A stretch of 64,000 nucleotides of DNA from Patescibacteria group bacterium (GCA_035291665.1 DATDRP010000001.1:2569-66568); one strand, 5' to 3'. Shown: positions 3,995-51,715, numbered from the stretch's first letter. Made by a program: numbers and translations. Notes: generated from the letters alone by a model not told the origin.

Positions 3995-4026
3995 ATGTAT
4001 CATATAATGATATATGATACATGAAA
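3995..4026. repeat. 32-bp hyphenated palindrome, copy P1 (tcatgtatcatata-atga-tatatgatacatga)
   Basis: Perfect 14-bp inverted arms with a 4-bp spacer. Lies in the convergent intergenic region between the 360-aa gene and rplL. Four more copies occur in this window. Confidence 0.8.
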
Positions 4027-4074
4027 GACAAATGGCGAATGTAATTCAAATGCAACCGACCCTGTTTTCGTCTC

Positions 4075-4108
4075 CATCAAAAACCCACTCTTTATATTGA
4101 GTGGGTTT
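4075..4108 (-). terminator. rho-independent terminator downstream of rplL
   Basis: 8-bp stem acccactc/gagtgggt with an 8-nt loop. On the minus strand it is followed by a T-rich tract (tttttgatg), 30 nt past the rplL stop. Confidence 0.55.
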
Positions 4109-4135
4109 AAACTTTCTTGAGAAATCGTAATAATA

Positions 4136-4582
4136 TTACTTCATCTCAACCGTAGCTCCCGCCGCTTTCAGTTTGTCTGCAGCTGCTTTGACGTCTTCGA
4201 CCTTACCGTCTTTTATGATTTCGGCCGGAAGAGTTTCAGTCATATCCTTGGCTTCCTTCAGACCCCAATTCTGATTGATCTCCCGGAGAGCTTTGATAAC
4301 TGCAATTTTATTATCACCGGAACCTGTCATGGTGAGACTTTGTGCACCGCCACCGGATTCTTCACCGGCTGCTGGAGCATCTCCGCCTGCAGGTGCTGCA
4401 GCCGCACTTGCTGCAACCGCAACTGGTGCTGCTGTTACGCCGAGCTTATCCTGCAATGCGTTAACGAGCTCTGATAACTCAACTACTGTGAGTTTTGAGA
4501 TTTCGTCAACCAATTTCTCGACGCCCTTTGATAATTCCTTTTTTGTTTCTTTTTTTTCTTCTTTCTTAGTATCGTCTGCCAT
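4136..4582 (-). CDS. rplL: 50S ribosomal protein L7/L12 with a Lys/Glu-rich N-terminal extension
   Basis: Ala-rich hinge plus C-terminal domain (..SGDNKIAVIKALREI..LKEAKDMTE..VKAAADKLKAAGATVEMK). Lies downstream of rplJ. Confidence 0.9.
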   Translation of the reverse strand: MADDTKKEEKKETKKELSKGVEKLVDEISKLTVVELSELVNALQDKLGVTAAPVAVAASAAAAPAGGDAPAAGEESGGGAQSLTMTGSGDNKIAVIKALREINQNWGLKEAKDMTETLPAEIIKDGKVEDVKAAADKLKAAGATVEMK

Positions 4583-4646
4583 ATTTGCTCACCTCCATTC
4601 GCAAAAGTATCACAAGTAACAAAAGTATCAAAGGTATCACGGGGAT

Positions 4647-5186
4647 TCAACTCGTGGTACTCGTATTACTCGAGATGCTTTTTGTTTTTAATATGAATAC
4701 TAATTTCTGTAAATTTCCCTGCAATGTTCCCAGAAGCCCGTAAACCGGTGCTTGTATTGCCCCAAGGACGGCAGCCTGTAAGGCTGACTTTCCCGGAAGT
4801 TTTGACAGCGTCAGGAGTGCATTTTTATCCTGGAACAATCCTTCTATGACGCCAACTTTCAGGCTCGGGATTTCAAATTCTTTTGCGAATTTGTCAAGAA
4901 CCTGGAGTGCGGCAATCGGATCCCCTTCAGTGACAACTAATGCAGTTGGACCCTCCAAAACCGTATCAGTGGATATTTCTTTCGGACTTTCAGCTTTATC
5001 TGCAGCCAATTTAAATAAGGTGTTTTTGGAAACAGTCATCGTAGCACCAACTCCGCGTAAACGTTTTTTGAGTTCCTGTTGCTGTTTTACTGCAAGACCT
5101 GTGTAGTCAATAAGGACAACCCCTGTTGCACTTTTTATCGTAGCTGACAGGTTGTCAACGAAATATACTTTCTCTGCTTTTTTCAT
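4647..5186 (-). CDS. rplJ: 50S ribosomal protein L10
   Basis: Sits immediately upstream of rplL on the same strand. The N-terminus (KKAEKVYFVDNLSATIKSATGVVLIDYTGLAV..ELKKRLR) is typical of L10. Confidence 0.85.
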   Translation of the reverse strand: MKKAEKVYFVDNLSATIKSATGVVLIDYTGLAVKQQQELKKRLRGVGATMTVSKNTLFKLAADKAESPKEISTDTVLEGPTALVVTEGDPIAALQVLDKFAKEFEIPSLKVGVIEGLFQDKNALLTLSKLPGKSALQAAVLGAIQAPVYGLLGTLQGNLQKLVFILKTKSISSNTSTTS

Positions 5187-5470
5187 GATTTAAAGTTGAA
5201 GAGCTGGAGAGTGGAAGAGTGGAAGATTTTTCTCAAGCTCTTCTACTCTTATACTCTTTTACTCTATAAACCAAAAAACGCGCCCGAAGCGCGCTATAAA
5301 AACTTAACTATAAAAAGTTAGCTTTGATTCGCCTCGGTGTGGATTATAGATAAGAGTGAAAGAGTAGAAGAGTGTAAGTTTTTCAACTTATACTCTCAAG
5401 CTCTCTTTGCTCTTACACTCTTAAAAAACACACTGTCTTCGGACAAAATGTATTATAATATACCACTTAT
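5187..5470 (-). promoter_or_regulatory. structured 5' leader upstream of rplJ (candidate L10-leader autoregulatory RNA)
   Basis: 280-bp non-coding region upstream of rplJ. It holds extensive nested complementarity (gaagagctggagagtggaagagtggaag / cttctactcttatactcttttactc / agagtgaaagagtagaagagtgtaag / cttacactctt) and a GC hairpin cgcgcccgaagcgcgc (5283-5298). Confidence 0.35.
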
Positions 5471-5487
5471 TAAAATCAAGGAGGAAT

Positions 5488-5928
5488 ATGGAAAGAAGTA
5501 AATATCAGGATTTACCGATAGATAAAGCTTTTGAAAGGTTAGTTGAAGGTAGTTTTTATTATATTACGGTTATTTATAAACAAAATGGTGCCTATGGGGG
5601 AAAAGTATTATTTCCTGATGATCTCAAAACGGCTGATCACAAAAATTCCAATTTACCCGATAATAGCGTTGCCGAATCCGTTTTTCTAACCTATGTTTCG
5701 GCAAGCTGCGAAGCCGGATTGGAGCTGGCAGAGGAGTTCAGGCGAAATTGGCCTCCGGATGGGGAAGGAAAATTCACTCAAAGAGTAAAAATATTAAATG
5801 AAAAGTTATGCAAACTTGAAGGTATGGGCAACTCTGAACCTACGATTATCCAAATACGCCTGCCAGAGAATAATAAGAGTATCAATGCAAATGATCTATT
5901 AAATAAGATGTTGGGTGAAGTGAAATAA
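5488..5928 (+). CDS. hypothetical protein
   Basis: 146-aa ORF preceded by a strong RBS aaggagga 4 nt upstream of the ATG. Confidence 0.5.
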   Translation: MERSKYQDLPIDKAFERLVEGSFYYITVIYKQNGAYGGKVLFPDDLKTADHKNSNLPDNSVAESVFLTYVSASCEAGLELAEEFRRNWPPDGEGKFTQRVKILNEKLCKLEGMGNSEPTIIQIRLPENNKSINANDLLNKMLGEVK

Positions 5929-5953
5929 AGTTTAAGTGTAAATATTAATTGCT

Positions 5954-6487
5954 TTACAATCTTTTTCCAGATTTTACAGGTAAATTCCACATAGCTGCAT
6001 TTTCAGAGACACTTCTTCCTCCTAAATCTGTTTTTGGTCGTTGCTTTACGATAACAGGTACTGCCTCAGGTTTTCTGGGGTTTGTTGCTAAATCGGTTAA
6101 TTTTTGAAGCGTTTCGTCTGTGATAGGTAATTCTTCGATTGGGAAATTTTGGTCTGGTCCTTGCCCGTCTGAAAGATATCTCGCTTTTTGTTCATCATTC
6201 AGTTCAGTTGCAACAATTGACCCTTCAGGTGCATCGCCTTGTTTTTCGGATCCATAGACGTAAAATGTTTCGACCGGTGGATGTTTACCGTCAATTTTTA
6301 GTGAGTAAACGACCTTTTCCGAAAGAGGATTCTTAAGAATTAAAGGAATTTCAACTCCCTGTAATCTTCTGGTAAGTGGAATAAGTTCACCGTTTTCGGA
6401 ATGCATAAGTTTGAACTCATCAACCTGTGAATTTTCAGGTTTTACTACGATTTCCTGTTCTGTTAATTCCGCAACTGAATCTGCCAT
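5954..6487 (-). CDS. hypothetical protein (last gene of a three-gene minus-strand operon)
   Basis: 177-aa ORF; its start lies 10 bp downstream of the upstream gene stop. Confidence 0.45.
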   Translation of the reverse strand: MADSVAELTEQEIVVKPENSQVDEFKLMHSENGELIPLTRRLQGVEIPLILKNPLSEKVVYSLKIDGKHPPVETFYVYGSEKQGDAPEGSIVATELNDEQKARYLSDGQGPDQNFPIEELPITDETLQKLTDLATNPRKPEAVPVIVKQRPKTDLGGRSVSENAAMWNLPVKSGKRL

Positions 6488-6496
6488 ATTTACGAA

Positions 6497-6805
6497 TTAT
6501 AAACTTTCCAGATATTCCTTGAAATATTTTTCGATTAAAACACCAACAGTATTATCAGAATTAACTAATTTCAGTTGATATAGGACACTTAATAGTTTTT
6601 CGTCAATTTCAGAATTTTTCTCAAATTTTAAGTCTTTCACTAATTTTTCGGAATCTTCAGACAGATTACCTTTGGCCTCAGAAAGAGTAGCTACAATTGC
6701 GAAATATTGAGCCATTCCTAATACATCATTAATTTCTTCCCGATTTACACCTTTTGCTAACTGCTTCGAAGTAAAATTTTCTATAATTGGTTTCAGGTTG
6801 TCCAT
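6497..6805 (-). CDS. hypothetical protein
   Basis: 102-aa acidic ORF, tightly packed between neighbours (3-bp and 10-bp gaps). Confidence 0.45.
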   Translation of the reverse strand: MDNLKPIIENFTSKQLAKGVNREEINDVLGMAQYFAIVATLSEAKGNLSEDSEKLVKDLKFEKNSEIDEKLLSVLYQLKLVNSDNTVGVLIEKYFKEYLESL

Positions 6806-6807
6806 GT

Positions 6808-7320
6808 TTATTTAGTATATTGTTCTAACATTTTACCTGGAATTGTACCAAGTGCTTCTCCAACCACTCCACCCACAACGAAGCCGCCAACTATCCCTTT
6901 CTTCCCATAAACTAATCCGCCAAGAGCACTTAATCCCAATCCTCCGATAAGCGCCCACGGGTGTTCAGACGCAAATTTTTGCAATCCCTGGTCGGATATG
7001 TCGGCTGTATTAATACCAAGAACTCTTGCTCCGTCTGTTCCCGTTATCCCAACCAACATGGGGTCAAGATTTGATGAAGCTAAAACTCCTATCTCAGCTG
7101 TTAATCTAGCGTGAGCAGCCTGACCGAGTCTTGTGAAAAAATCACCTTCCCCTTCGTTTGCCAAATCAAGAGTTTTTTGAATCTCAGTTTTAATTGAGCC
7201 GGTAAGTCCATCAAGCTTACCAATTTTTTCTATAAAAACCTCTTTGGCTCTTGTTCGTAGGTCTCCGGGGGTTTCAACGGTAGTTGTATTTTCAATTAAA
7301 TCCGTATTCACCTCATCCAT
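6808..7320 (-). CDS. hypothetical protein with C-terminal glycine-zipper membrane segment
   Basis: 170-aa ORF. The C-terminus LIGGLGLSALGGLVYGKKGIVGGFVVGGVVGEALG is a Gly-zipper/TM-like segment. Confidence 0.45.
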   Translation of the reverse strand: MDEVNTDLIENTTTVETPGDLRTRAKEVFIEKIGKLDGLTGSIKTEIQKTLDLANEGEGDFFTRLGQAAHARLTAEIGVLASSNLDPMLVGITGTDGARVLGINTADISDQGLQKFASEHPWALIGGLGLSALGGLVYGKKGIVGGFVVGGVVGEALGTIPGKMLEQYTK

Positions 7321-7386
7321 GACAAGATTTTATACATTAAATAGCTTGTTGTAAACCAACATATTCAAATTAATATTTATACGCAT

Positions 7387-7503
7387 TTCAAGAATACCCC
7401 GATTTAATCGGGGATGAATTGAATTAAGAATATAACCTCGTTTAGACGGATCCGAAAGGATACCCCGCCTGAAAGCGACAGCGAGAGGGCGGGGAGGTTT
7501 CAT
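7387..7503. repeat. intergenic double-hairpin repeat, family A (divergent copy)
   Basis: ttcaagaatacc - hairpin ccccgatttaatcgggg - atgaattgaatt .. hairpin ccccgcc..ggcgggg - aggtttcat. Same architecture as the copies at 18088, 21281, 48847 and 61829. Confidence 0.5.
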
Positions 7504-7516
7504 ATATAATAGTTCT

Positions 7517-8437
7517 ATGGAAATAAGTTTGGGGGCATCAAATTTGGAAGGTGTAAAAAATAAAGAAACAGAAACCCTGAAAAATCTTGAGTCGATGGTT
7601 AAGCTGTGGCATGAGAATGCTGATCAGATGTGGGGGAAAGAATCCTTTCATAATTGGCAGCATATAGTTGCTGTGAGGTATGCAAAAGATGAATATCTGA
7701 AAAGTTATCATGAAAAAGGACTGGATCCGCTTCGAGTTTTCGGTGATGAAGGCGAGCTTACCCGATGGAACCAGAGTAAAACCGATGAGGAAAAAATATC
7801 GCCCGAAGAATTTGAGTACGGGTTGGATGCTTCTATCTTACTCCACGACGTAGGTAATGTTCTCACCAGGATAGATGTTAATGAAGAAGGGGAACTAGTT
7901 CCAACATATCATTATCAGGAAAATACAAATCATGCAAATATTGCATCAGATAAGGTTTATATCGCGGCGGGGGCTGAAGACAGAACAAAGGAGATGATTG
8001 AACCGATTTTTACGAAACTGGGAATAGACAAGAAACTGATTCCGATGGCACAGGATTTTGTTGAGAATACCAAATATCAGTTTACCGAGGGCGGGAAAGA
8101 TACACCGTTTGCTGTTTTTATGAGAGTTGTGGATCAGTTAGGCGTAAATTATTTTTCGGAAGATGACAAACGAGTGCTTGGCTTGGCAAATGAAAATAAC
8201 ATCGAATTTCCAGAAAGGAAGTACAACCCGGATTTTGTTGTAAATTTTACGTTAAGAAGGTGTAGAGAATTGGTTCCCAACGATACAGTTCGGGATACAT
8301 TAGTTAATGGTTCCTGGGGGAAACAATACCCAAAAGAATTCCCCGGTCTTGGAACCGGTCCGATTTCGGGAGTTGAAATACGAGACATATTAGTATCAAT
8401 TAATCATCAAAAATCATCCGATGAAAGTAATTTGTAG
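7517..8437 (+). CDS. HD-domain phosphohydrolase-like protein
   Basis: Carries H..H (WQHIVAV) and the HD motif (ILLHDVGN) characteristic of the HD superfamily. Confidence 0.45.
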   Translation: MEISLGASNLEGVKNKETETLKNLESMVKLWHENADQMWGKESFHNWQHIVAVRYAKDEYLKSYHEKGLDPLRVFGDEGELTRWNQSKTDEEKISPEEFEYGLDASILLHDVGNVLTRIDVNEEGELVPTYHYQENTNHANIASDKVYIAAGAEDRTKEMIEPIFTKLGIDKKLIPMAQDFVENTKYQFTEGGKDTPFAVFMRVVDQLGVNYFSEDDKRVLGLANENNIEFPERKYNPDFVVNFTLRRCRELVPNDTVRDTLVNGSWGKQYPKEFPGLGTGPISGVEIRDILVSINHQKSSDESNL

Positions 8438-8483
8438 ATGTTGATTTAGGTCCGGATTCAAGTTAAGATTATATTTGTAAAAA

Positions 8484-9956
8484 ATGAAGAAATTAGTCTC
8501 AGCTATTATCTCTCTCGTATTATTATATTCTTTAGCGGCTTCAACTTATGCTCAGGAAAGTGGTATCCAAATAGATGCAACGGGTTCGGCTCCTGCGGGG
8601 GTCGAAACAGGAAGTGCGGGTGTTGGTACAAAAATGATTGCTCCCGATGCGATTTTCCCTCCTTATAACAACGGTTCATCGCCATTTGGGCAAAAACATG
8701 GTTATACGGTCACATTTCGGGGAAATGGCGATGCTGTTGTTAGTGCCCGGCTTGTTGTTGGGAATCAAAGCGATAAAGATCTGGAAAAGGTTACTTATCG
8801 AATTCCAAGGGTTTCTCCGACTGACATCTATGTCTTCCAGATCATAAAGCAAAAAAGCTGCAATCGATATGACTATCCGGCTTATGATCCTGTCACAAGA
8901 AGATACCCCCAGCAAGTTTGTACCGAATGGGCTGAACCGGATTATTACAACGACTATTCCTATTATCAGGCGAAATACCAAAAAGCTGATTATGAATTTT
9001 CCGGAGATGAATTAAAAATTACTTTTCCCACCCCAATTGAAAGTCAAAAAGCAGGCGCTTTATTTTTGTATTTCCGCTCATCTGGCTATGCGAAGAAGGC
9101 TTCGTTCGGTGCTTATTCATACACTTTTGAATCTCTGAAGGCGATGGACTCAATCATAAGTTTGAGCGTCGGAATCGCTACCGACTCAGATTTATACCTC
9201 AAGGGAGTTGAGGCTAATGTTAACTACAGATTCGAAGATGTCGCTCCGAAGCTAGCCTCGGTTAATTCCGGTTTCGGTGCAGTCGCCATGGAAAATTCAT
9301 CCCTTGATTCCTATGTTTCTTCTATCGGACAAGGATCTATTTACAAAACCGCTTCAAATTTGGCGCCCCTTGAGTCATACCAAGTAGAAGGCTCATATGC
9401 CGACTCACGCGCAAAACTTTATGCCAAAGAAATTATGTGGGTTGGGGGAGGAGTCCTTTTTGTAATAGTTCTTATCTTACTTCTTGTCCGATTGGTAATT
9501 AAGGTGTTCTCGCACAACGTTCGCGGCGAGGTAAAAAATGACGATAACGAAAAGTCAGGTAAAGAAGGCAACGGACAAATGATGCTTCTTGCGTTGGGAG
9601 TTGGTTTTGTTGCATCTTTCTTAACGCTTGCCTATACGGTGGGAATGTTTATTGCCGGGTCTCTCATGAGCCAAGCTTTGGGGTATTCTTTCCAGTCGGC
9701 GGTTATTGTTTTCTTTATAATTATGTCACTTATGGTGTATCCCTTGCTTTTATTCGTACCGGGCATATTAATCGGTGCAAAAAAGAAAAGCATCGGTTGG
9801 GGAGTTGCTGTGGTGGGGTCAACCTTCGGCTGGGTATTTCTATTGGGGATAGTACTTTTTGTCGTATTTTATTTTTTTCGATCAAGTGGAAATATAGGGA
9901 TTTACGATATGGTGTTGGGTAAATCGGCTCCCATGGGAAGTCCGATGATGGAGTAA
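8484..9956 (+). CDS. secreted/membrane protein (N-terminal signal peptide, C-terminal multi-TM region)
   Basis: Signal peptide MKKLVSAIISLVLLYSLAASTYAQ. The C-terminal third holds about four hydrophobic helices. Confidence 0.5.
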   Translation: MKKLVSAIISLVLLYSLAASTYAQESGIQIDATGSAPAGVETGSAGVGTKMIAPDAIFPPYNNGSSPFGQKHGYTVTFRGNGDAVVSARLVVGNQSDKDLEKVTYRIPRVSPTDIYVFQIIKQKSCNRYDYPAYDPVTRRYPQQVCTEWAEPDYYNDYSYYQAKYQKADYEFSGDELKITFPTPIESQKAGALFLYFRSSGYAKKASFGAYSYTFESLKAMDSIISLSVGIATDSDLYLKGVEANVNYRFEDVAPKLASVNSGFGAVAMENSSLDSYVSSIGQGSIYKTASNLAPLESYQVEGSYADSRAKLYAKEIMWVGGGVLFVIVLILLLVRLVIKVFSHNVRGEVKNDDNEKSGKEGNGQMMLLALGVGFVASFLTLAYTVGMFIAGSLMSQALGYSFQSAVIVFFIIMSLMVYPLLLFVPGILIGAKKKSIGWGVAVVGSTFGWVFLLGIVLFVVFYFFRSSGNIGIYDMVLGKSAPMGSPMME

Positions 9957-10011
9957 GTAAATTAGGGTAGCACCATTTTCTTCTTCTGACCAAAAAACCG
10001 GTTAAAAAATC

Positions 10012-10923
10012 TCAGATTTTTACTTTTATGGAGGGACTCATTGAAGCTTTGAAATAAGCTTTTACGATTGTTTTTGGTCCCAAAGTCTCGAGTATCACAT
10101 TCGCATTTTCAATTAATTTTTTATCATCCATACTTTCTTTTCCGAAAGTGGTGTGGATAATCGGTGCGTCTTTTTCTGTTTTTATTGTTTTTGCGTCAGC
10201 TGAAAATTCTGAAATGGCTTTTGTATTTTTGATCAAAGTTCCATTTTTCGGATTTGGCATCATGCCTTTCGGACCAAGAAGCCGAGCAAATGGCACAAGT
10301 TTTGGCATCATATCTGCTGTTGCCAATAAAACATCAAAGTCGATCTTTCCTTTTTTAAGTTTTTCTATGGTTTTATCGTCCGCTACTTCAACTGCTCTTT
10401 GTTTACCGAATGAATTGGGGAGTGTAACGTTCACATTTACACCGGTTTTTTTGACAACCAGATGCATTTCCAAAGTACCATCAAATTTGGAAATATTTGT
10501 TTCTTTTGCAAGTTTAATAGCATCGGCAGTTGAATAAAGCTTACCCGAATCGATTTTGGCTTTCGCAGCTTTATATTTCGCTCCTCTAACGCGGATTTTC
10601 TTCTGTTTTTTATTTTCAGCTTCGGTAGTTACCGTATCTTCAACGACGACTTCTTCCGCAGGAAGCTCGGCTCCGATAACTTTGATTCTTTCGCCGCCTT
10701 TTAAGCCAAGACCTGCTACTTGAGCTTTGTCTTTCTTTTTTCCGCCATCAGCCTGAACTTTCTGCTTTGCTTCTGCTTCTGCGCGTTTTTGCTGTTTAAG
10801 TTTGTATTTATCTTCGCTGGAAAGCGCTTCTTCCGTGACGCCTCCGACGAATGCTGTTTTAGTTTTTCCCATGATTTTTAATGTTTTTTTATAATTTTTC
10901 TTAAAAAATAAGTAAAAAATCAC
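10012..10923 (-). CDS. rplA: 50S ribosomal protein L1 with ~100-aa Lys/Ala/Glu-rich N-terminal extension (true start possibly ATG at 10872)
   Basis: L1 core motifs are present (FARLLGPKGMMPNPKNGT.., DFDVLLATADMMPKLV). Confidence 0.8.
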   Translation of the reverse strand: MIFYLFFKKNYKKTLKIMGKTKTAFVGGVTEEALSSEDKYKLKQQKRAEAEAKQKVQADGGKKKDKAQVAGLGLKGGERIKVIGAELPAEEVVVEDTVTTEAENKKQKKIRVRGAKYKAAKAKIDSGKLYSTADAIKLAKETNISKFDGTLEMHLVVKKTGVNVNVTLPNSFGKQRAVEVADDKTIEKLKKGKIDFDVLLATADMMPKLVPFARLLGPKGMMPNPKNGTLIKNTKAISEFSADAKTIKTEKDAPIIHTTFGKESMDDKKLIENANVILETLGPKTIVKAYFKASMSPSIKVKI

Positions 10924-10966
10924 AAGATTAGCAGCTTTAGCTGCGCACTTATGATTCGTTTATTGG

Positions 10967-11215
10967 TTACCAAGTTACTTCTTTGTTCCTGGGACACCAG
11001 TCACAACCGTTGTGCGGGACATTTATTTGCTCTAAACCCTCAACGATGCTTTTATCAGAACTTAATATAACTTTAATCATTTTTGTTGAAGGGGGTGTAC
11101 ATGCATTTCCATCTGCTTTACAAACTAATCGAGCCCCTCCTTCTTTTCCATAAGATTCAACTTCCAAATTAGGAAATAACCCTTTCATATTCTTTGATAA
11201 TGGTATGGTATGCAT
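10967..11215 (-). CDS. small Cys-containing hypothetical protein inserted between rplK and rplA
   Basis: 82-aa ORF with CKADGNAC .. CDWC spacing (possible zinc-ribbon-like). The position is atypical for this operon. Confidence 0.35.
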   Translation of the reverse strand: MHTIPLSKNMKGLFPNLEVESYGKEGGARLVCKADGNACTPPSTKMIKVILSSDKSIVEGLEQINVPHNGCDWCPRNKEVTW

Positions 11216-12403: not shown

Positions 12404-12404
12404 A

Positions 12405-18087: not shown

Positions 18088-18190
18088 TTTCAAGAAAACC
18101 ACCGAGTTTGACTCGGTGAATGAATTGAATTCTGATATGTCATCCTCCTTTCGAGGAAAAACCCGAGTCTGACTCGGGGGAGGATGTCAT
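18088..18190. repeat. intergenic double-hairpin repeat, family A (full copy)
   Basis: tttcaagaaaacc - hairpin caccgagtttgactcggtg - aatgaattgaattctgatatgtcatcctcc - tttcgaggaaaaa - hairpin cccgagtctgactcggg - ggaggatgtcat. Confidence 0.7.
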
Positions 18191-18300
18191 TGGATGAGCC
18201 AAGAGGAGGCTTGTGTTTAGTTAATAATAAACAAATATTTTTACACAAACCTCCGAAAGGGGGTTTTTTAGTTTAAAAAAGTTAGTTGGGAGGTGAAAGC

Positions 18301-21280: not shown

Positions 21281-21354
21281 TTCAAGAAAACCACCGAGTC
21301 TGATCGAGTCAAACTCGACAACCAAGTCAGACTTGGCTCGGGGGAGGATGTCAT
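21281..21354. repeat. intergenic double-hairpin repeat, family A (short variant)
   Basis: ttcaagaaaaccaccgagtctga - palindrome tcgagtcaaactcga - .. ctcggg - ggaggatgtcat. Confidence 0.6.
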
Positions 21355-21415
21355 AAATAAAAAGTATTATACGAATTGTAGTCGTTCGGATTAGTTGGTG
21401 CTATGATGAAAATAT

Positions 21416-28211: not shown

Positions 28212-28290
28212 AGAGCCTTAATCTTTTAAGTTCGAACATCCTTTCATCCATCCCTATTTTTTTGTGTAATTTTGAAGCTAAAATTTGTCA

Positions 28291-28384
28291 GCAGCCCTGG
28301 ATGTCGTAGATCCTGAGTGAAACCGAAGGAGAAAGTATACACACCAAATTATTTTTTCAAAATAATTACGAACTTTTTACGCTC
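28291..28384. repeat. family B intergenic repeat (full copy)
   Basis: gcagccctggatgtcgtagatcctgagtgaaaccgaaggagaaagtat .. ccaaattattttttcaaaataattacgaactttttacgctc. The inner palindrome is aattatttt-ttc-aaaataatt. Confidence 0.7.
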
Positions 28385-29881: not shown

Positions 29882-29989
29882 AAGTATATCACTCCGGAGG
29901 TTGGTTACAATTTGGTTTTTTTAATTTCTAGACAGTTCGATCAGGAATTCTTTTCTAAGCAGTCCTGGTACGTTTCAGTTTATATGAAA

Positions 29990-30080
29990 ATACCCTGGAT
30001 GTCGTAGATCCTGAAAGGAGTCGAAGGGGAAAATACCCAAGTCAATTATTTTTTCAAAATAATTACGAACTTTTTCGCAC
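29990..30080. repeat. family B intergenic repeat (full copy, diverged 5' half)
   Basis: ccctggatgtcgtagatcctgaaaggagtcgaaggggaaaatacccaagtcaattattttttcaaaataattacgaactttttcgcac. Confidence 0.65.
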
Positions 30081-30814: not shown

Positions 30815-30845
30815 GTTTGAAGTATATATTACCTGAGGCTAAAAA

Positions 30846-30900
30846 GCAGCCCTGGATGTCGTAGATCCTGAGTGAAACCGAAGGAGAAAGTATTCGAACC
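30846..30900. repeat. family B intergenic repeat (5' half only)
   Basis: gcagccctggatgtcgtagatcctgagtgaaaccgaaggagaaagtattcgaacc is near-identical to the 5' half of the 28291 copy. Confidence 0.65.
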
Positions 30901-31967: not shown

Positions 31968-31996
31968 TCAAAACAAAAATAGACCCACGAGGGGTC
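31968..31996 (-). terminator. rho-independent terminator after tRNA-Trp
   Basis: On the minus strand: gacccctcgtgggtc followed by tatttttgtttt. Confidence 0.6.
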
Positions 31997-32008
31997 ATTA
32001 TTATTTTG

Positions 32009-32079
32009 CAGGCTTGCCAGGATTCGAACCTGGAAGAGCGGTTTTGGAGACCGCCATGATACCATTTCATCACAAGCCT
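32009..32079 (-). tRNA. tRNA-Trp (anticodon CCA)
   Basis: Minus-strand cloverleaf: acceptor aggcttg/caagcct, anticodon loop ctCCAaa, T-arm ccagg-ttcgaat-cctgg. Confidence 0.85.
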
Positions 32080-32170
32080 AAGGTGCGTATTTCAGTTCAG
32101 GATACCAGTTTTAACTAAAGCTAATTATACTACACGTTTCTTGCTTTTCAGAGTTATTGTAAATACTATG

Positions 32171-32202
32171 TCATGTATCATATATCATTATATGATACAT
32201 GG
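32171..32202. repeat. 32-bp hyphenated palindrome, copy P2 (spacer tcat)
   Basis: tcatgtatcatata-tcat-tatatgatacatgg. Same arms as P1 with the spacer reverse-complemented; one mismatch at the final base. Confidence 0.75.
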
Positions 32203-32340: not shown

Positions 32341-32745
32341 TCAAAAAGGTGAAATTTTTCTTCTTGTGTTGCTTCGCGAGATGTCAATTTCGTTTAAGGC
32401 TTTTATCACGTCAATTAACTTGGATTTCAATGATGATTGTTTTATACGATTAAAAAGCACTTTTTTGTGTTCAGTCGTAATTACTTTATTTTGAAGAGAA
32501 AAGCGAATGATGGTTTGTCTGGTTGTTTTCAAAATATTAGCTAACTCATCCTGAAAAAATCCTTTGTCCCGAAGATAAAAATATCCTAATCGTTTTTTTA
32601 CCATTTTGAGCTCCGTTTTTGTGAATACTGCAGTTAGAAGTGCGAGCACTTCAGAGTTGGGTAGGTTGGTAAAAGTACTTCTTAATATTTCATCAAGTTC
32701 CTTGTCAACGGAATCTTCTAATTTTTGTTTTGAAACGTGTGTCAT
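32341..32745 (-). CDS. TrpR/YerC-like helix-turn-helix DNA-binding protein
   Basis: LKMVKKRLGYFYLRDKGFFQDELANILKTTRQTIIRFS follows the Trp-repressor-family pattern (..R..I...L..G.SQRE...LG.S..TITRGS). Confidence 0.5.
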   Translation of the reverse strand: MTHVSKQKLEDSVDKELDEILRSTFTNLPNSEVLALLTAVFTKTELKMVKKRLGYFYLRDKGFFQDELANILKTTRQTIIRFSLQNKVITTEHKKVLFNRIKQSSLKSKLIDVIKALNEIDISRSNTRRKISPF

Positions 32746-32773
32746 GTAACATATATCATTATATGTGACATGA
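32742..32773. repeat. 32-bp hyphenated palindrome, copy P3, overlapping the start codon of the TrpR-like gene
   Basis: tcatgtaacatata-tcat-tatatgtgacatga. The cat at 32743-32745 is the ATG of the minus-strand gene. Confidence 0.75.
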
Positions 32774-32916
32774 GGATCGATTACAATTACGTTTATTTAG
32801 TTAATTTGTTTTAAAAAAAACATAATGATATTAAAAAAATAATGGAAGCTTGTTTAAAAGTGTATTTTTCAATCAAAGAATAAAGAAGGAATAATGGGAG
32901 AAGATATTCTTGTAGG

Positions 32917-45643: not shown

Positions 45644-45646
45644 TTA

Positions 45647-47263
45647 ATGACTGACCAATTAGTCAAAAAAAACATATTACTTAAAATTATTTTAGTTTTG
45701 GGCTTTTTGATTATTTTCGGAAGATTGGTTGAGCTTCAGGTTGTTAAAGGCAATTACTACAGAAACCTTTCTGACGGAAATCGAATACGTCGCGTGAAGA
45801 TCGTTGCTCCAAGGGGAGAGATTTATGCCCGGGGTGGAGAAGTTGTGGTCGGTAATGCCGAAAACCCGAAAAGAGTGTTTTTTGATAGTCAAATGGGTTA
45901 TATAAAGGAAAGCATTCCGGATTCAGAAAAGGATATGGGATCAATAGTCGAATATAAAAGAATCTATCCAATGGGGATGGATTCATCCCATATTAGCGGT
46001 TATTTGGGAAAGGTTACCGAGTCGGAGCTTAATAAAGTTGACGGAAATTGTCCGGACAAGGGTGTAAGAAATTCTGAAGATTGGATTGGAAGAAGCGGTC
46101 TTGAACAATACTATGATTGCTTGTTGCGTGGGGTTGATGGGGAAGAATTGATTGAAGTTGAATCGAATGGCCAAAGAGTCCGTACTTTGGGTATCAAAGA
46201 TCCCGTAAAAGGGGGAGATTTGAAGACAACTCTGGATTTTCCGCTTCAAGAGTATATTGCCAAATTATTAACAAACCAAAAAGGGGCGATTGTTGCAACG
46301 GATGGGTTTGGTGAAGTTCTAGCCTCCTACTCATCACCGTCTTTCGACAGCAGCGCATTTGTTGTCGGTAACGGAGATGTGATTAGTAAAATTTTTGCCG
46401 ATAAAGACCTACCGCTTCTTAACCGAACGATAGCCGGGATTTATGCACCGGGTTCAATCTTTAAGCCCCTGGTTTCATTGGCGGCTTTGGAAGAGGAAAA
46501 AATTAACCCCGATTGGACATACGTGGATACCGGACGGATCAGTTTTCAGACGATTTATGGTGATTACACGTACAATAACTGGTTCTTCACACAATATGGC
46601 GGAACCGAAGGGAAAATTGAGATTACAAAAGCTATTGCCAGATCAACAGACACCTTTTTTTACAAGGTTGGTGAAGAGTTGGGAATAGACAATCTTGTGA
46701 ATTGGGCGAGAAAATTAGGTTTGGGGTCGGTAACGGGGATTGATATTCCGGGAGAGGTTGGAGGTTTGGTCCCGGATCCGGTTTGGAAGGAAAAAACAAA
46801 AGGAGAACGTTGGTTTTTGGGTAATACCTATCATTTGGCAATAGGCCAGGGTGATTTATTGGTCACTCCTATGCAAATGAATATTGCAACCAGTGTAATT
46901 GCAAACGGTGGGAGACTTTGTAGCGCTCACTTCGCGTCCGTTGGCAGACATTGCCTTGACTTGAATATTAAGTCAGAAAATCTTGATCTTGTGAAGACGG
47001 GTATGGAAAAGGCTTGTTCCACAGGGGGAACCGGTTTTACCTTTTTTGATTTTGAAGAAAAGCACGATATTAAAGTTGGCTGCAAGACGGGAACAGCTGA
47101 GGTTGGAAGCGATGATGAGACTCATGCATGGTTTTCTGTTTTTGCTCCGATTGATAATCCTCAGATCGTTCTTACAGTTTTGATTGAAAAAGGCGGCGAG
47201 GGTTCAAAAGTCGCCGGTCCTATTGCAAGAGATATTTTTGATTTTTGGTTTTCGAAGAAGTGA
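45647..47263 (+). CDS. mrdA: penicillin-binding protein 2 (class B transpeptidase)
   Basis: N-terminal TM, then active-site motifs APGSIFKP (SxxK) and KTGTAE (KTG). Immediately downstream of mreB. Confidence 0.8.
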   Translation: MTDQLVKKNILLKIILVLGFLIIFGRLVELQVVKGNYYRNLSDGNRIRRVKIVAPRGEIYARGGEVVVGNAENPKRVFFDSQMGYIKESIPDSEKDMGSIVEYKRIYPMGMDSSHISGYLGKVTESELNKVDGNCPDKGVRNSEDWIGRSGLEQYYDCLLRGVDGEELIEVESNGQRVRTLGIKDPVKGGDLKTTLDFPLQEYIAKLLTNQKGAIVATDGFGEVLASYSSPSFDSSAFVVGNGDVISKIFADKDLPLLNRTIAGIYAPGSIFKPLVSLAALEEEKINPDWTYVDTGRISFQTIYGDYTYNNWFFTQYGGTEGKIEITKAIARSTDTFFYKVGEELGIDNLVNWARKLGLGSVTGIDIPGEVGGLVPDPVWKEKTKGERWFLGNTYHLAIGQGDLLVTPMQMNIATSVIANGGRLCSAHFASVGRHCLDLNIKSENLDLVKTGMEKACSTGGTGFTFFDFEEKHDIKVGCKTGTAEVGSDDETHAWFSVFAPIDNPQIVLTVLIEKGGEGSKVAGPIARDIFDFWFSKK

Positions 47264-47328
47264 TGCTCCAAAAATTAGCAGGAGACTTCGGATAATTCTA
47301 ATTTGAAAATTATCACGTTAATACTATA

Positions 47329-47360
47329 TCATGTTACATATATCATTATATGTGACATGA
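47329..47360. repeat. 32-bp hyphenated palindrome, copy P4
   Basis: tcatgttacatata-tcat-tatatgtgacatga lies in the mrdA-dprA intergenic region. Confidence 0.75.
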
Positions 47361-47539
47361 AAAGGCACGAATATTATACATAATTAATAAACTGATGGTT
47401 AAATTCAAATTCTATAAGATAACCACAATTTCCTTTAACCGCGTTTACTGCGAACAATTTCTTGCATATCAACGCTTTTTTGGATGCGAACTTTGAAATA
47501 ATTGCGATGTTCAAAATGGCGGCATTTTGTTTATCCGCC

Positions 47540-47660
47540 TTCGCAGAAAACCGTGAGTCTGAGCTCTCGGATGAATGCGAAGTGTTTTTCCGCTTCGGCG
47601 GATTTTGCTCCGACGAAGCGAAGGAGAAGAAACCACTGGCGTAAGCTAGTGGAGCTTCAT
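47540..47660. repeat. degenerate family A-like repeat
   Basis: gcagaaaaccgtgagtctgagctctcggatgaatg.. resembles the family A 5' box and hairpin. Small hairpins follow (ccgcttcggcgg; gcttcg..cgaagc). Confidence 0.3.
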
Positions 47661-47727
47661 GTAATAATTTACCCTTTTTAGGAAAAAAGGATATGAAACC
47701 AATCTGTTGTAGATTAGTATTATATTA

Positions 47728-48810
47728 ATGGTTGACAAGGATTATCTTATACTTCTTTCAACATTCATAAATTTCGGTCCTGCAAGGATAAAGCTTCTTA
47801 CCGGCTACTTCAAAGGAGCAAAAAATGTTTGGAGTGCATCAAAAAAGGATTTGTCGGATGTCGGACTTCGAAAATCCTTAGCAGATAATTTTTTACAACA
47901 CAGGAATAAGTTGGATCCGGATCTTTTCTTTTCAAATTTAAAAAAGAAACAAATTAATATTGTTGTACAGAGCGGAGAACTTTATCCTGCCAACCTGAAA
48001 GGGCTTGACGACGCGCCTGTGGTTTTATATTACAAAGGCATTTTATCCAAAAACGATGTTAACTCGGTTGCGATAGTCGGGGCGAGGAAAATGACTTCGT
48101 ACGGCAGAGAAGTAACATCAAAATTTGCCCTTGAGCTTGCAGCTATGGGAATACCGATTGTATCCGGACTCGCATTCGGAGTTGATGTAGAAGCCCACAG
48201 AAGCGCGGTTTCAATAGGGGGAAGATGCATTGCTGTTTTGGCGTCCGGCGTTGATACGATTACACCGCGATCTAATGAATGGCTGGGAAGAAAAATTATT
48301 GAAGAAAGAGGAGTGATATTGTCTGAATATCCACCGGGTACCGTTCCCCAGAGAAATTTCTTTCCCTATCGAAATAGAATTATTTCGGGTATAGCTAGAG
48401 TGGTTATCGTAGTTGAAGGGTTGGAAAAAAGCGGTACTCTTCATACGGCTTCCCATGCGGCAAGTCAGGGGAAGACCGTTTTCGCAGTTCCCGGTCAGAT
48501 TACATCTCCGACAAGCGGTGCGCCTCATTTTTTACTTAAAAACGGCGCTAAAATGGCAACTTGCGTTAAAGACATTCTTGACGATATGGATTTACAGGTT
48601 AAAGTAGATAGAGACGCAGTGGCAAAAATCATGCCGGATTCCGAAGACGAAGTAAAAATATTAAAGTTTTTGGAAGTCGAACCGCTCTTTCTTGACGAAC
48701 TTGTTAGAATATCAGGGGTCGACGTAAAAATTATATCCGCAAAACTCACAATGATGGAAATGAAAGGTTTAGTGAAAAATCTCGGGGGAGGAAAATATAA
48801 GAAAGTATAA
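47728..48810 (+). CDS. dprA: DNA-processing protein DprA (Smf)
   Basis: Rossmann-like core (VAIVGARKMTSYGREV..AAMGIPIVSGLAFGVDVEAHRSA..VLASGVD) followed by a C-terminal winged-helix-like tail. Sits upstream of topA, a common arrangement. Confidence 0.8.
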   Translation: MVDKDYLILLSTFINFGPARIKLLTGYFKGAKNVWSASKKDLSDVGLRKSLADNFLQHRNKLDPDLFFSNLKKKQINIVVQSGELYPANLKGLDDAPVVLYYKGILSKNDVNSVAIVGARKMTSYGREVTSKFALELAAMGIPIVSGLAFGVDVEAHRSAVSIGGRCIAVLASGVDTITPRSNEWLGRKIIEERGVILSEYPPGTVPQRNFFPYRNRIISGIARVVIVVEGLEKSGTLHTASHAASQGKTVFAVPGQITSPTSGAPHFLLKNGAKMATCVKDILDDMDLQVKVDRDAVAKIMPDSEDEVKILKFLEVEPLFLDELVRISGVDVKIISAKLTMMEMKGLVKNLGGGKYKKV

Positions 48811-48846
48811 GTGTAAGTCAAAGAAGTAATTGACTTCATAGCAGAA

Positions 48847-48986
48847 CCCAAGAAAACCCAGAGCGTCCTTCGACATGCTCAGGATGGTGAGCGAAGCCGA
48901 ATCATGAGCTCGTGGGATGAATTGGATTCTGATATGTCATCCTCCGTTAAAGGAAACCCCATTCGTAAGAATGGGGAGGATGTCAT
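48847..48986. repeat. intergenic double-hairpin repeat, family A (full copy)
   Basis: ccaagaaaaccc .. gggatgaattggattctgatatgtcatcctcc - gttaaaggaaa - hairpin ccccattcgtaagaatgggg - aggatgtcat. Confidence 0.65.
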
Positions 48987-49023
48987 AAACTTAGACGCAG
49001 ACTTAATCTTAAACTATTTATAT

Positions 49024-51039
49024 ATGAATTTGATAATAGTTGAATCACCTACTAAAGCGCGTACATTATCTCGGTTTTTGGGGAAAGAATACGATGTGGA
49101 AGCAACCAAGGGTCATATTAAGGATTTACCTAAAAGTACGTTGGGTGTGAATGTCGAAAAAAATTTCACACCTGAATATATTGTCGTTGCAAAACAAACT
49201 GATGTTATTGAGACTCTTAAAAAAGCCTCAAAAAAAGCAAATATTGTCTATCTTGCCACTGACCCTGATCGAGAGGGAGAAGCAATTGCCTCTCATGTTG
49301 AAGAAATTGTTGGAGAGTTTGTTGCGGAGGATAAAATAAAAAGGATAGTTTTTCACGAAATTACCAAAGAAGCAGTAGAGGAAGCGATAGGTAGCCCGCG
49401 AAAAGTTGATCAGCATCTTGTGAATGCACAAATAGCCAGGCGTGTTTTAGATCGATTGGTAGGATATAAATTATCTCCTCTTTTATGGAAGAAAGTCAGA
49501 CGGGGACTTTCGGCAGGTCGTGTCCAAAGTGTGGCAGTTCGGTTGATCGTTGAACGCGAAAGAGAAATTTCTGCTTTCAAGCCGGTTGAGTATTGGGAAA
49601 TATTTTCAGATGTAAGTGGTATCGATGCACCCAAAAAAGATATTTTTAGGGTGAAACTACTAAAAATTAACGGAAAACCCGCAGAGGTTGGTGACGGTGA
49701 AACAGCAAAATCGGTTGTTACCGATTTGAAGGTATTTCCTTACAGAATCTTAGAGGTTACGAAAAAAGAAGTCCATAAACATCCATACCCTCCATATACC
49801 ACTTCCACATTAACTCAAGCGGCAGCGAGAGTGTTCAGGTGGTCTTCAAGAAAAACCATGAGCATTGCACAAAGTCTTTACGAACAGGGATTAATTACAT
49901 ACCATCGTACGGACTCAACCAACCTTGCGGCATCAGCTGTTTTAAAAGCCAGAAGTTTTATTAAAAAGGAATACGGTGAGCAGTATCTGCCATTAAGTCC
50001 GAATTTCTACAAAACAAAATCAAAAGTTGCGCAGGAGGCGCATGAAGCTATTCGCCCCTCAAACGTCAGTATTACAAGCGGAAATGGAAATGCCAAATTT
50101 ACCAGCGATATGGAAAGATTGTATGAGCTGATTTGGAAAAGGTATGTCACGTGTCAAATGTCAGATAGTGTTTACGATGAAACTACAATAGATGTCGAAG
50201 CAAAGAAAGAGGTTGCTTCTTCAAAGTCATATTTACTTCGGACCAGGGGAGCGATAATGAAATTCGACGGATGGAAGAAACTTTATAAAGGATCAAAATC
50301 CTCTGAGGATGATGTTGTTAACTTACCCGAAGTTGTCAAAGACCAACTTCTTACTCTGATCGATGTGATATCTGAGCAAAAGTTCACGCAAGCGCCGGCG
50401 AGATATTCAGAAGCGATGCTTATTAAAACTCTGGAAAGTTTGGGGATAGGCCGGCCGTCAACGTACGCTCCGACTATTTCAACAATCCAGGTACGAAGTT
50501 ATGTTGAAAAAATTGAAGGGCGATTCAAACCAACTCCGGTCGGAATTGCTGTAAATGACTTTTTAATTACGAATTTTCCTGATGTTTTTGAATATAAATT
50601 TACGGCAGATATGGAAAACTCGCTTGATGATATTGCAAACGGTGAAGAAAAATGGAAAGAGTCGATTGGGGATTTTTACCGACCATTCGAGAAGAAATTG
50701 GCAGATGTTGAAAAAAAAGCAAAAAGGGTGAAAATTGAAGCCGAGAAACTTGGCCGGAAATGTCCCGATTGTAAAGATGGAGAGTTGGTAATTCGGATTG
50801 GACGTTTCGGCAGGTTTATTTCCTGTTCGAATTTTCCCGATTGCAGACACACGGAAAAATATGTTGAAAAAGCTCATATGAAATGTCCCGATTGTAAAAA
50901 AGGCGACGTTATTATCAAAAAGACACAAAAAGGAAAAAGGTTTTTCGGATGCAGCCGTTACCCGAAGTGTAAGTGGGCCAGCTGGAGAAAACCTGAGAGA
51001 GTAAAAAAGCTAACTAAAGAAACCTCTAAACAAAGTTAA
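49024..51039 (+). CDS. topA: DNA topoisomerase I with two C-terminal zinc ribbons (likely start ATG 49024; tracked ORF from 48904 runs through the upstream repeat)
   Basis: Toprim N-terminus (MNLIIVESPTKARTL), catalytic region, and C-terminal CPDCKDGELV..CSNFPDC plus CPDCKKGDV..CSRYPKC. Confidence 0.85.
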   Translation: MNLIIVESPTKARTLSRFLGKEYDVEATKGHIKDLPKSTLGVNVEKNFTPEYIVVAKQTDVIETLKKASKKANIVYLATDPDREGEAIASHVEEIVGEFVAEDKIKRIVFHEITKEAVEEAIGSPRKVDQHLVNAQIARRVLDRLVGYKLSPLLWKKVRRGLSAGRVQSVAVRLIVEREREISAFKPVEYWEIFSDVSGIDAPKKDIFRVKLLKINGKPAEVGDGETAKSVVTDLKVFPYRILEVTKKEVHKHPYPPYTTSTLTQAAARVFRWSSRKTMSIAQSLYEQGLITYHRTDSTNLAASAVLKARSFIKKEYGEQYLPLSPNFYKTKSKVAQEAHEAIRPSNVSITSGNGNAKFTSDMERLYELIWKRYVTCQMSDSVYDETTIDVEAKKEVASSKSYLLRTRGAIMKFDGWKKLYKGSKSSEDDVVNLPEVVKDQLLTLIDVISEQKFTQAPARYSEAMLIKTLESLGIGRPSTYAPTISTIQVRSYVEKIEGRFKPTPVGIAVNDFLITNFPDVFEYKFTADMENSLDDIANGEEKWKESIGDFYRPFEKKLADVEKKAKRVKIEAEKLGRKCPDCKDGELVIRIGRFGRFISCSNFPDCRHTEKYVEKAHMKCPDCKKGDVIIKKTQKGKRFFGCSRYPKCKWASWRKPERVKKLTKETSKQS

Positions 51040-51043
51040 TCCA

Positions 51044-51583
51044 ATGATAATAGGACCAAAAAAGTTACTTCAATTGGTTAAATCAATAAAACTTGTAGAA
51101 AACCTCTCCGGTCGCGAGCTCACAAATCCCGAAGGGGCAGGCTTTGACTTGCGGCTGGGTGAAGTTTATCGGATCGAAGGAGATGCTTTTTTGGGAATTG
51201 AAGAAAGATATACTCCGAAATCGAAATTAGTAAAAAATTATAAAGAATCAAAAAAAACATCAATTATTATTAAACCCGGTGATCAGTTTGTGGTTACAAC
51301 AATGGAAAGTCTTAATTTACCCGGTAACATCACCGCGAATTTGTGGCTTAGAAGTACTCTTTATCGAAGCGGGATTATCTTAAGCGGAGGTAATATTGCA
51401 CCAGGATATTCGGGTAAGCTATCGTTTACCTTGTTTAATTCCGGAAAATCCAGAGTAGAAATAGAACTAGGTGCAAGGATTGTACACATATTATTTTATG
51501 AAGTTAAGGCAGGAGGGACTTTGTATCGGGGCCAATGGCAGGGCGGAAGAGTCACAGCGGCTAAAAAAGAGAAACAAGTTTAG
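51044..51583 (+). CDS. dcd: dCTP deaminase / dUTPase-fold enzyme
   Basis: 179 aa with the Dcd-like N-terminus (ELTNPEGAGFDLRLGEVY) and the beta-barrel motif GNIAPGYSGKLSFTLFN. Confidence 0.55.
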   Translation: MIIGPKKLLQLVKSIKLVENLSGRELTNPEGAGFDLRLGEVYRIEGDAFLGIEERYTPKSKLVKNYKESKKTSIIIKPGDQFVVTTMESLNLPGNITANLWLRSTLYRSGIILSGGNIAPGYSGKLSFTLFNSGKSRVEIELGARIVHILFYEVKAGGTLYRGQWQGGRVTAAKKEKQV

Positions 51584-51683
51584 TAACTTATAATAAACAC
51601 TAGTTTTTTTATTATCTTTATAAGTCAGTTCCATTTAAGGGAATGTATTATTAAACAAATACAAATTTAGACAATTTACTATA

Positions 51684-51715
51684 TCATGTAACATATAATG
51701 ATATATGTTACATGA
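51684..51715. repeat. 32-bp hyphenated palindrome, copy P5 (perfect)
   Basis: tcatgtaacatata-atga-tatatgttacatga lies between dcd and the thyX-tmk-glyA block. Confidence 0.8.

Follow-up and report, generated by a model that had tools for sequence, protein, structure and literature searches.

Why does a 32-bp palindrome recur several times in a Patescibacteria genome, and why does one copy lie exactly over the start codon of a helix-turn-helix (HTH) gene? We addressed these questions in a stretch of 64,000 nucleotides from a Patescibacteria group bacterium (GCA_035291665.1, DATDRP010000001.1:2569-66568), referred to below, at its full length, as the window. A search of the window with TCATGTWWCATATA-N4-TATATGWWACATGA, in which up to three mismatches were allowed, returned exactly five palindromes of the form 14-4-14 (P1 to P5, Table 1), each with 0-1 mismatch, and no match was found in 100 dinucleotide shuffles that served as background. 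Judged from the sequence, we consider it likely that the TrpR-family HTH protein encoded at 32341-32745 uses the palindrome as its operator, and that P1, P4, P5 and a further copy beyond the window, P6, are duplicates that arose in this lineage.

Conserved position of the element at the regulator start codon

The copy P3, hereafter O1, covers the ATG and 28 bp upstream of the 134-aa regulator gene, as a first-pass annotation of the window had described. An exhaustive HMMER search yielded 66 representative homologue clusters, nearly all of 130-137 aa and aligned from residue 1, across which the N-terminal motif MTHVSRKKL is conserved; the position of the start codon inside P3 is therefore confirmed. 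The TATAAT -10 of the predicted promoter is formed by the end of a palindrome arm together with the ATGA spacer, and it ends 13 nt before the ATG. This would leave a leader of about 6 nt or less, and we infer that transcription starts 4-6 nt before the ATG.

For comparison across lineages, eight loci were found with a 10-sequence alignment (L021-L025 and L027-L029, several of them Candidatus Woesebacteria), so that nine lineages including the window were considered; the homologues are ~34-42% identical to the window protein. In all nine lineages, a related AT-rich element ends exactly at position -1 of the regulator ATG (ATGAC.CA.GT). The elements of the relatives are built on ATGATATATCAT or TATCAT..TATATG, and that of L023 on GTTACATATA-TCAA-TATATGTAAC, and a -35-like TTGACx hexamer is located 15-19 nt upstream of TATATC/TATCAT. 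A strict scan called promoters in five of the nine lineages, their -10 boxes ending between -10 and -13. Two further promoters are near misses (TTGACT-19-TATCAT and TTGACA-17-TATCAA), bringing the lineages with a -35-like hexamer ahead of an in-element -10 to seven out of nine. Codons 2-5 vary at synonymous positions between lineages, implying that the N-terminal conservation acts at the level of the protein and that the operator ends near +4. Moreover, the closest long-contig relative (69% identity in QueA and 64% in TopA) has neither the regulator gene nor the element in 33 kb of syntenic DNA. Co-occurrence of the motif with orthologues of the regulator, proposed in the first-pass annotation as a check, is thus borne out both by the nine loci in which the element abuts the ATG and by the close relative that lacks the two together.

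A second copy past the regulator gene

The element is found not only ahead of the regulator gene but also behind it. A clear second copy past the regulator stop (O2; P2 in the window) is present in eight of the nine lineages: the window has one, and among the eight fetched loci only L025 does not, its weak candidate being under the scan threshold. When O1 was compared with the rest of its locus, this post-stop copy was the closest match in the other seven fetched loci. O1 and O2 are identical in L028 and L029 and agree at 16-21 of 22-24 positions in the other loci. Copies of the same genome are thus more alike than copies of different genomes. No further copy was found in the flanks of the relatives (about 56 kb). 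A TrpR-family gene with an element at its ATG in every lineage and a clear second copy in most supports the first-pass proposal of an autoregulated repressor with its operator.

The first-pass annotation had also correctly placed P2 at the 3' end of the regulator gene; what it had not seen is that P2 stands upstream of a tRNA-Trp gene as well (Table 1). The order regulator, element, tRNA-Trp recurs in six cases, namely, the window, L009, L022, L025, L028 and L029. Because L023 and L027 have a second copy without the tRNA, O2 belongs with the regulator gene and not with the tRNA. In L023, the region 5880-6300 contains the second operator, a strong TTGACA-17-TAGAAT promoter and then a structured-looking, GC-richer stretch with neither a tRNA nor an Rfam match above noise; this stretch may be an RNA gene in place of tRNA-Trp.

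A Patescibacteria-specific clade of the TrpR/YerC family

Sequence profiles and a predicted structure place the regulator in a small Patescibacteria-specific clade of the TrpR/YerC family. On its own, the window protein matches the Pfam family Trp_repressor (PF01371) with an E-value of 0.009, the match spanning profile positions 2-84 of 88. Among the clade members, 39 out of 40 match the same family at E<=0.01, the best at 4e-11. In a search of the PDB with the clade profile, the best sequence-profile matches were 3kor (a 'possible Trp repressor' of YerC type; E 6e-6), 3frw and 3g1c. The AlphaFold (AF2) monomer model consists of eight helices (predicted local distance difference test, pLDDT, 88), and the top 24 Foldseek matches in the PDB are all TrpR or YerC-like, E. 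coli TrpR included, with probabilities of up to 1.00 and template modelling (TM) scores of 0.5-0.78 (0.60-0.78 when normalised to the target); the top structural match is 1TRR. Furthermore, hhalign placed the clade-invariant residues T42, E45, R52, T78 and R81 on T44, E47, R54, T81 and R84 of TrpR with moderate confidence (probability 54%, E 1.3e-4). The clade is confined to Patescibacteria-type metagenomic genomes, and literature searches found no description of it or of the palindrome motif. Thus, the earlier label 'TrpR/YerC-like' is right at the family level, as indicated by the Pfam, PDB profile and fold matches, but its motif and neighbouring genes differ from those of HisR/YerC, of which it is therefore no orthologue.

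Additional copies and the question of a regulon

Extension of the window by 9 kb along its own contig, for a total of 73 kb of scanned DNA, revealed a perfect sixth copy, P6, and a half-site search added a degenerate tandem copy, P1', beside P1. The first-pass annotation had listed the same five palindromes within the window, with only the first coordinate in need of correction (3993, not 3995). Every copy lies outside credible genes, though the sequence is ~86% coding. As that annotation had also described, the spacer occurs in both orientations (ATGA in P1 and P5, TCAT in P2, P3 and P4) and the arms form two sub-variants (GTATC in P1 and P2; GTAAC, GTTAC or GTCAC in the remaining window copies). 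From the spacer it had concluded that the entire element, too, is present in both orientations; this does not follow, since within the window the flank ACTAT[GA] is always on the 5' side of the + strand, regardless of spacer orientation. The conservation claimed for the flanks applies to P1, P2, P4 and P5 but not to P3, at which the flank is absent; at P4, P5 and P6 it reads ACTATA, and at P6 it is on the opposite side.

Two near-identical sets of copies can be distinguished in the genome, P1/P2 and P3/P4/P5/P6. P1 and P2 agree in their arms and in the 8-nt flank ATACTATG, the inversion of the central 4 bp being essentially their only difference. P3, P4, P5 and P6 differ from one another by 1-2 bases at most, P3 and P6 being the same at 32 of 32 positions. 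No site of graded or intermediate quality was found in the 73 kb. The settings of the extra copies are diverse. P1 lies between a convergent 360-aa open reading frame (ORF) and rplL; because rplL has its own GC-rich terminator at 4081-4108, between the gene and P1, P1 is not the rplL terminator. P4 has mrdA (PBP2) on one side and dprA-topA-dcd on the other, P5 has dcd on one side and a 77-aa ORF followed by thyX-tmk-glyA-(ATP-cone)-folD on the other, and P6 has ybaB on one side and, on the other, a convergent 96-aa ORF that precedes recR.

Conservation of such a regulon was examined in syntenic relatives found through TopA and QueA homologues. In four relatives with the gene order mreB-mrdA-dprA-topA plus the downstream tmk-glyA segment, ~21 kb apiece, none of the family variants of the element is present, and P4 and P5 are therefore lineage-specific. 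Indeed, the whole 465-bp mrdA/dprA gap that harbours P4 is absent from these relatives: in three of the four, mrdA and dprA overlap or are 3 or 12 nt apart, and in L031, where only a 78-aa DprA fragment was called, the gap is 69 nt. Accordingly, the small regulon suggested in the first-pass annotation, comprising dprA-topA, thyX-tmk-glyA-folD and rplL, is unsupported as a conserved regulon: the four syntenic relatives have no copies, the copies are near-identical paralogues and not graded sites, P1 and P6 are in convergent gaps, and rplL is served by its own terminator. Duplication of an operator unit fits the extra copies better than independently evolved regulon sites do.

A proper -35 in register was found only at P3, with weak candidates at P4 and P6. 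We considered a common promoter geometry for P1, P2, P4, P5 and P6, with a -35 properly spaced from the internal TATAAT/TATCAT, with the flank TACTAT serving as a -10, or with flank-side ATG-NNN-TAG mini-ORFs, and rejected it, as no consistent layout emerged. Beyond the 7-11-nt flank, no common sequence was found, nor any small conserved ORF or RNA downstream of the copies, and an Rfam scan (gathering scores and E<=1) returned nothing at or beside any copy. Genes for DNA precursors or DNA processing adjoin three of the four extra sites here and two sites in the Ga0209345 relative described below, an association that is suggestive and was noticed after the fact.

Outside the window, the exact 22-base motif had no match in 185,579 GTDB species genomes or in viral contigs, and it matched 11 metagenome contigs, a likely relative being recognisable only in L006-L010. 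L001-L005 and L011 were treated as unrelated chance matches; L002 consists largely of short, satellite-like tandem repeats, and the other five were judged only on their repeat-rich flanks. In the relative, from metagenome Ga0209345, five contigs bear the 32-bp palindrome in the same form, with TTGA as the spacer, and one of them holds its regulator/tRNA-Trp locus; its regulator is 33% and its tRNA-Trp 95% identical to those of the window. On three contigs, including that of the regulator locus, the copy begins 2-13 nt past a stop codon, and one copy is upstream of holB-gyrB. At L007 1425-1456, the palindrome is in frame (HVTYIDICYM) within a DRG/Rbg-type GTPase gene, partly in a 6-aa insertion relative to yeast Rbg1/Rbg2. 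The window species itself is represented by contigs from several samples of aquifer-type (groundwater) metagenomes, which are 100% identical. The window occupies positions ~2.6-66.6 kb of a 513-kb contig (ENA ERZ27254851 k141_611322) from such metagenomes.

Several sequences near the extra copies deserve separate mention. Between P4 and dprA, the region 47420-47660 is GC-richer, hairpin-rich and non-coding, and contains CCGCTTCGGCGG with a T-run behind it (47589-47610) as well as CCACTGGCGTAAGCTAGTGG; the region yielded neither an Rfam match nor a convincing ORF and is a candidate for a lineage-specific small RNA. Next to P5, the unannotated 77-aa ORF (51772-52005) is preceded at 51737-51774 by TTGACA-17-TAATTT-6-ATG, which suggests that its mRNA is leaderless or has a short leader. 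In the window, motifs like the Shine-Dalgarno sequence were seen upstream of 5 of 56 long ORFs, for which the start-codon calls are crude. Near P1, rplJ-rplL (4136-5460) stands alone, with no rpoB after it, no rplK, rplA, nusG or secE before it and flanking ORFs without a Pfam match; a weak L10-leader match at 5263-5460 (E 0.2) is under the gathering score. An 86-aa protein consisting only of an ATP-cone is encoded at 56451-56711 (-) inside the thyX-tmk-glyA-folD cluster and at the same place in the relative L032, and may be a nucleotide-sensing regulator without a DNA-binding domain.

Table 1. Positions of the palindromes, the regulator gene and the associated predicted features, counted from the first nucleotide of the window
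Feature	Position	Strand	Description
P1 palindrome	3993..4024	no strand	extra copy in the gap between the convergent 360-aa ORF and the rplL terminator
P1'	3951..3982	no strand	degenerate copy in tandem with P1, 42 bp upstream of it; mismatched at 6 of 24 specified positions (half-site search)
P2 (operator O2, putative)	32171..32202	no strand	139 nt past the regulator stop; the -35 of the tRNA-Trp promoter follows after 20 nt
P3 (operator O1, putative)	32742..32773	no strand	spans the regulator -10, the inferred transcription start and the ATG (to +4)
P4 palindrome	47329..47360	no strand	extra copy in the 465-bp mrdA/dprA gap
P5 palindrome	51684..51715	no strand	extra copy between dcd and the unannotated 77-aa ORF preceding thyX; 21 nt upstream of a TTGACA box
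P6	L030 16770-16801 (window-equivalent 68825-68856)		perfect sixth copy, 4.8 kb beyond the window end
Flank TACTATG	32164..32170	+	on one side of P2, common to P1
134-aa TrpR-family HTH regulator	32341..32745	-	NCBI hypothetical protein VI819_00230, Patescibacteria metagenome-assembled genome
Predicted sigma-70-type regulator promoter	32758..32786	-	TTGTAA (32786-32781), 17 nt, TATAAT (32763-32758); 10/12 matches
tRNA-Trp (CCA) gene	32008..32079	-	downstream of P2; P2 is 92 nt upstream of the gene
tRNA-Trp promoter	32151-32124	-	CTGAAA-16-TATAAT; -35 20 nt from P2

Alternative explanations

Several observations weigh against the palindrome being the operator of the TrpR-family regulator. The window protein alone scores 16.5 bits, under the 27-bit Pfam gathering cut-off, and the Foldseek E-values are modest (0.03-0.3). 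L021 and L027 lack a clear -35, and the symmetry centre and spacer orientation of the element vary between lineages. In the L009 relative, O2 is present without a recognisable O1, and the regulator frame looks frameshifted. Finally, P1 and P6 lie in gaps between convergent genes, and the extra copies have no consistent placement relative to promoters.

One way to account for the extra copies is a dispersed repeat of the repetitive extragenic palindrome (REP) or miniature inverted-repeat transposable element (MITE) type, spread by copying, with most copies devoid of a regulatory role and the regulator gene as a source or by-product. The two near-identical subfamilies, the shared arms and 8-nt flank of P1 and P2, the full agreement of P3 with P6, the absence of intermediate-strength sites in 73 kb, the empty orthologous positions in four relatives, the 465-bp gap around P4 in place of at most 12 nt in three of them (69 nt in the fourth), and the in-frame palindrome of L007 are all expected of such a repeat, and flipping of the central 4 bp between otherwise identical copies is typical of hairpin-mediated events. 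However, the element measures only 32-40 bp, no target-site duplication (no direct repeat at the flanks) and no transposase or gene resembling a REP-associated tyrosine transposase (RAYT) was seen in the 73 kb, and the sampled contigs of the species, being 100% identical, show no presence/absence polymorphism. Moreover, O1 and O2 keep their places around the regulator gene across nine lineages, and the tRNA genes beside them are conserved too, which points to vertical inheritance and not to mobility. We regard a REP/MITE-type repeat as possible, if somewhat unlikely, and see no conflict between it and an origin of the copies as operator duplicates; to this extent, the repeated element named as an alternative in the first-pass annotation was partly right, for the extra copies. 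The same annotation also offered a recombinase or partition site, which found no support. Binding of the sites by such a protein or by a replication-terminator protein, with the adjacent HTH gene a coincidence, would suit a long site present in several copies within 73 kb, the position of P4, P5, P6 and P1 (the rplL end with no rpoB after it) at junctions where gene order differs from that of relatives, and the weak matches of the family's HTH region to resolvase/invertase HTH families. Yet the element co-varies with the regulator lineage and keeps its exact position at the ATG in nine lineages, and none of the loci has an adjacent recombinase or ParB gene. ParB, which has an N-terminal CTPase domain, binds parS, a 16-bp palindrome whose sites cluster near oriC. 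The TrpR fold of the 134-aa regulator is unlike ParB, and the palindrome is presumably unrelated to the parS consensus, no search aimed at parS having been run. The GC skew is monotonic across the window, implying that no replication terminus lies within it. To binding by another protein we thus attach very little probability.

RNA-level and other ALTERNATIVES were weighed by folding energy, U-tracts, mismatches and arm conservation. If the palindromes acted as RNA hairpins, terminating transcription or stabilising the 3' ends of upstream genes, one would understand why some gene is upstream of each copy, why three copies of the Ga0209345 relative follow a stop codon so closely and why no canonical terminator was found past the regulator gene or ybaB, nor near P4 or P5; the predicted folding energies (-11 to -17 kcal/mol) would also be in keeping with this role. 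But the stems are AT-rich and have no U-tract on either strand, the terminator scan reported none of the copies, three of the six copies contain an uncompensated mismatch, and it is the arm sequence, not pairing alone, that is conserved between lineages. In addition, ordinary GC-rich terminators with U-tracts do occur in this genome (e.g. 4081-4108 and 31982-31996), and O1 is at or upstream of the inferred transcription start of its gene. Hairpins of this kind have, in our estimation, hardly any chance of being the main explanation.

Proposed mechanism and comparison with known systems

An operator of the adjacent TrpR-family regulator thus remains the explanation that we favour, and the binding, repression, stoichiometry and ligand proposed below are predictions from sequence. 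A dimer of the regulator would bind O1 over the -10, the start site and the ATG, a classic repressing position, and would block RNA polymerase, resulting in negative autoregulation. O2 is most likely an auxiliary site that could act through cooperative binding or looping with O1 or influence the next promoter, which in the window and five other lineages would drive tRNA-Trp. The length of 24-32 bp and the repeated hexamers of the TATCAT/CATATA type suggest binding by more than one dimer, and two or more dimers probably bind, in the tandem manner of TrpR. Retention of the arginines and threonines of the TrpR pocket makes a small-molecule corepressor plausible. P1, P4, P5 and P6 would be recent operator duplicates, added at new intergenic positions in this lineage only, and probably still bind the regulator.

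In kind, the pattern is, as far as can be read from sequence, the known TrpR/HisR layout of a small repressor, a palindromic operator and autoregulation. In E. coli, trpR is autoregulated through a palindromic operator that overlaps the core promoter of its own gene, as proposed here. The clade shares with E. coli TrpR (operators of trpR, trpEDCBA and aroH) the fold and the HTH signature, with T44, R54, T81 and R84 aligned; tandem binding by several dimers is known for TrpR (PDB 1TRR). TrpR itself is an all-helical, intertwined homodimer whose HTH is made up of helices D and E and which requires an amino-acid corepressor to bind. The arms of the palindrome hold TGTA(A/T)C...G(A/T)TACA, so that the outer half-site starts with TGTA, as in the TrpR operator consensus TGTAcTnGTnnACnAgTACA (PMC9413887). 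By contrast, TGTA...TACA spans 26 bp within a 32-bp palindrome here, as compared with 18-20 bp in TrpR operators, and the clade protein is ~30 residues longer, with the MTHVSRKKL motif at the N-terminus and extra C-terminal helices. A conserved second operator past the gene also sets the clade apart, and no trp biosynthesis genes are among the neighbours. HisR/YerC, the histidine repressor of Firmicutes, is likewise a small TrpR-family protein; it binds 20-bp palindromes and is often, in roughly half of the genomes, predicted to be autoregulated via one located ahead of its gene (PMC9413887). Its motif, cacTTTAnnnnnnTAAAgtg (cacTTTA-N6-TAAAgtg), is found upstream of his biosynthesis or transport genes (PMC9413887). 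The palindrome studied here is unrelated in sequence to that motif, no his genes or transporters are nearby (the neighbours being tRNA-Trp, dprA, topA, dcd and thyX), and the TrpR pocket residues lost in HisR are retained in the present clade as R52, T78 and R81.

The copies also resemble REPs and bacterial interspersed mosaic elements (BIMEs), which are short, near-identical intergenic palindromes, often at gene 3' ends, that spread in a lineage-specific manner and can be bound by host DNA-binding proteins. They differ from these in numbering six in 73 kb, with no RAYT gene and no clustered arrays, and in that the founding copies are at a fixed promoter position of a transcription-factor gene across distant lineages. 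The replication terminator protein (RTP) of B. subtilis is a small dimeric protein that binds ~30-bp composite sites (two dimers) beside its own gene, autoregulating it, and has more copies of its site in intergenic DNA. This likeness is an analogy only, RTP being a winged-helix and not a TrpR-like protein; moreover, Ter sites lack symmetry and lie on either side of the replication terminus, whereas the window has no skew switch. Taken from sequence comparison, the features that distinguish the present system are the longer protein, the longer composite operator, the second operator, the very short leader, the recurrence of tRNA-Trp and the lineage-specific expansion of operator copies.

Other repeats in the window

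Two other repeat families were seen. The sequence CCCGAGTCTGACTCGGGGGAGGATGTCAT occurs at 18155-18193, 61913-61951 and 21319-21357, as well as at L021 4353-4377, with 92% identity between two of the copies. Read in the opposite direction, on the complementary strand, it gives ATGACATCCTCCCCCGAGTCAGACTCGGG, the N-terminus MTSSPESDSG of a 141-aa ORF (61523-61948, -), and this suggests an N-terminal or 5' module shared by several genes, also in a Woesebacteria relative. A second family, unrelated to the palindrome, pairs a 56-nt repeat, with identities of up to 95%, with a neighbouring repeat of 32 nt whose copies are 100% identical, and recurs in three intergenic regions (28290-28378, 29988-30075 and 30845-30900) around genes for Peptidase_S51, DUF998 and a methyltransferase.

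Implications

Patescibacteria, or the candidate phyla radiation (CPR), have very few regulators and are not culturable alone, and to our knowledge almost nothing is known about their transcriptional control. A broader and more speculative scenario, which we consider unlikely, is that an amino-acid-responsive, possibly tryptophan-responsive, TrpR-type regulator with its pocket residues kept operates in these auxotrophic bacteria and may control tRNA-Trp, while its operator unit of ~40 bp has been copied to the boundaries of operons for DNA precursors and DNA processing (dprA-topA-dcd, thyX-tmk-glyA and dnaX-ybaB/recR, and holB-gyrB in the relative). If true, this would represent growth of a regulon by operator duplication, or protein-bound copies that serve as roadblocks or insulators between transcription units. 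The locus offers a concrete, testable regulator-operator pair, with a two-operator layout on a promoter with a predicted short leader, in a family that is recognisable in about 66 clusters. Furthermore, the recurrent adjacency of a TrpR-type protein and tRNA-Trp is a specific lead on the ligand, and the palindromes, if operators, provide a clean example of operator copies multiplying in one lineage, which bears on the origin of regulons or of small palindromic repeats.

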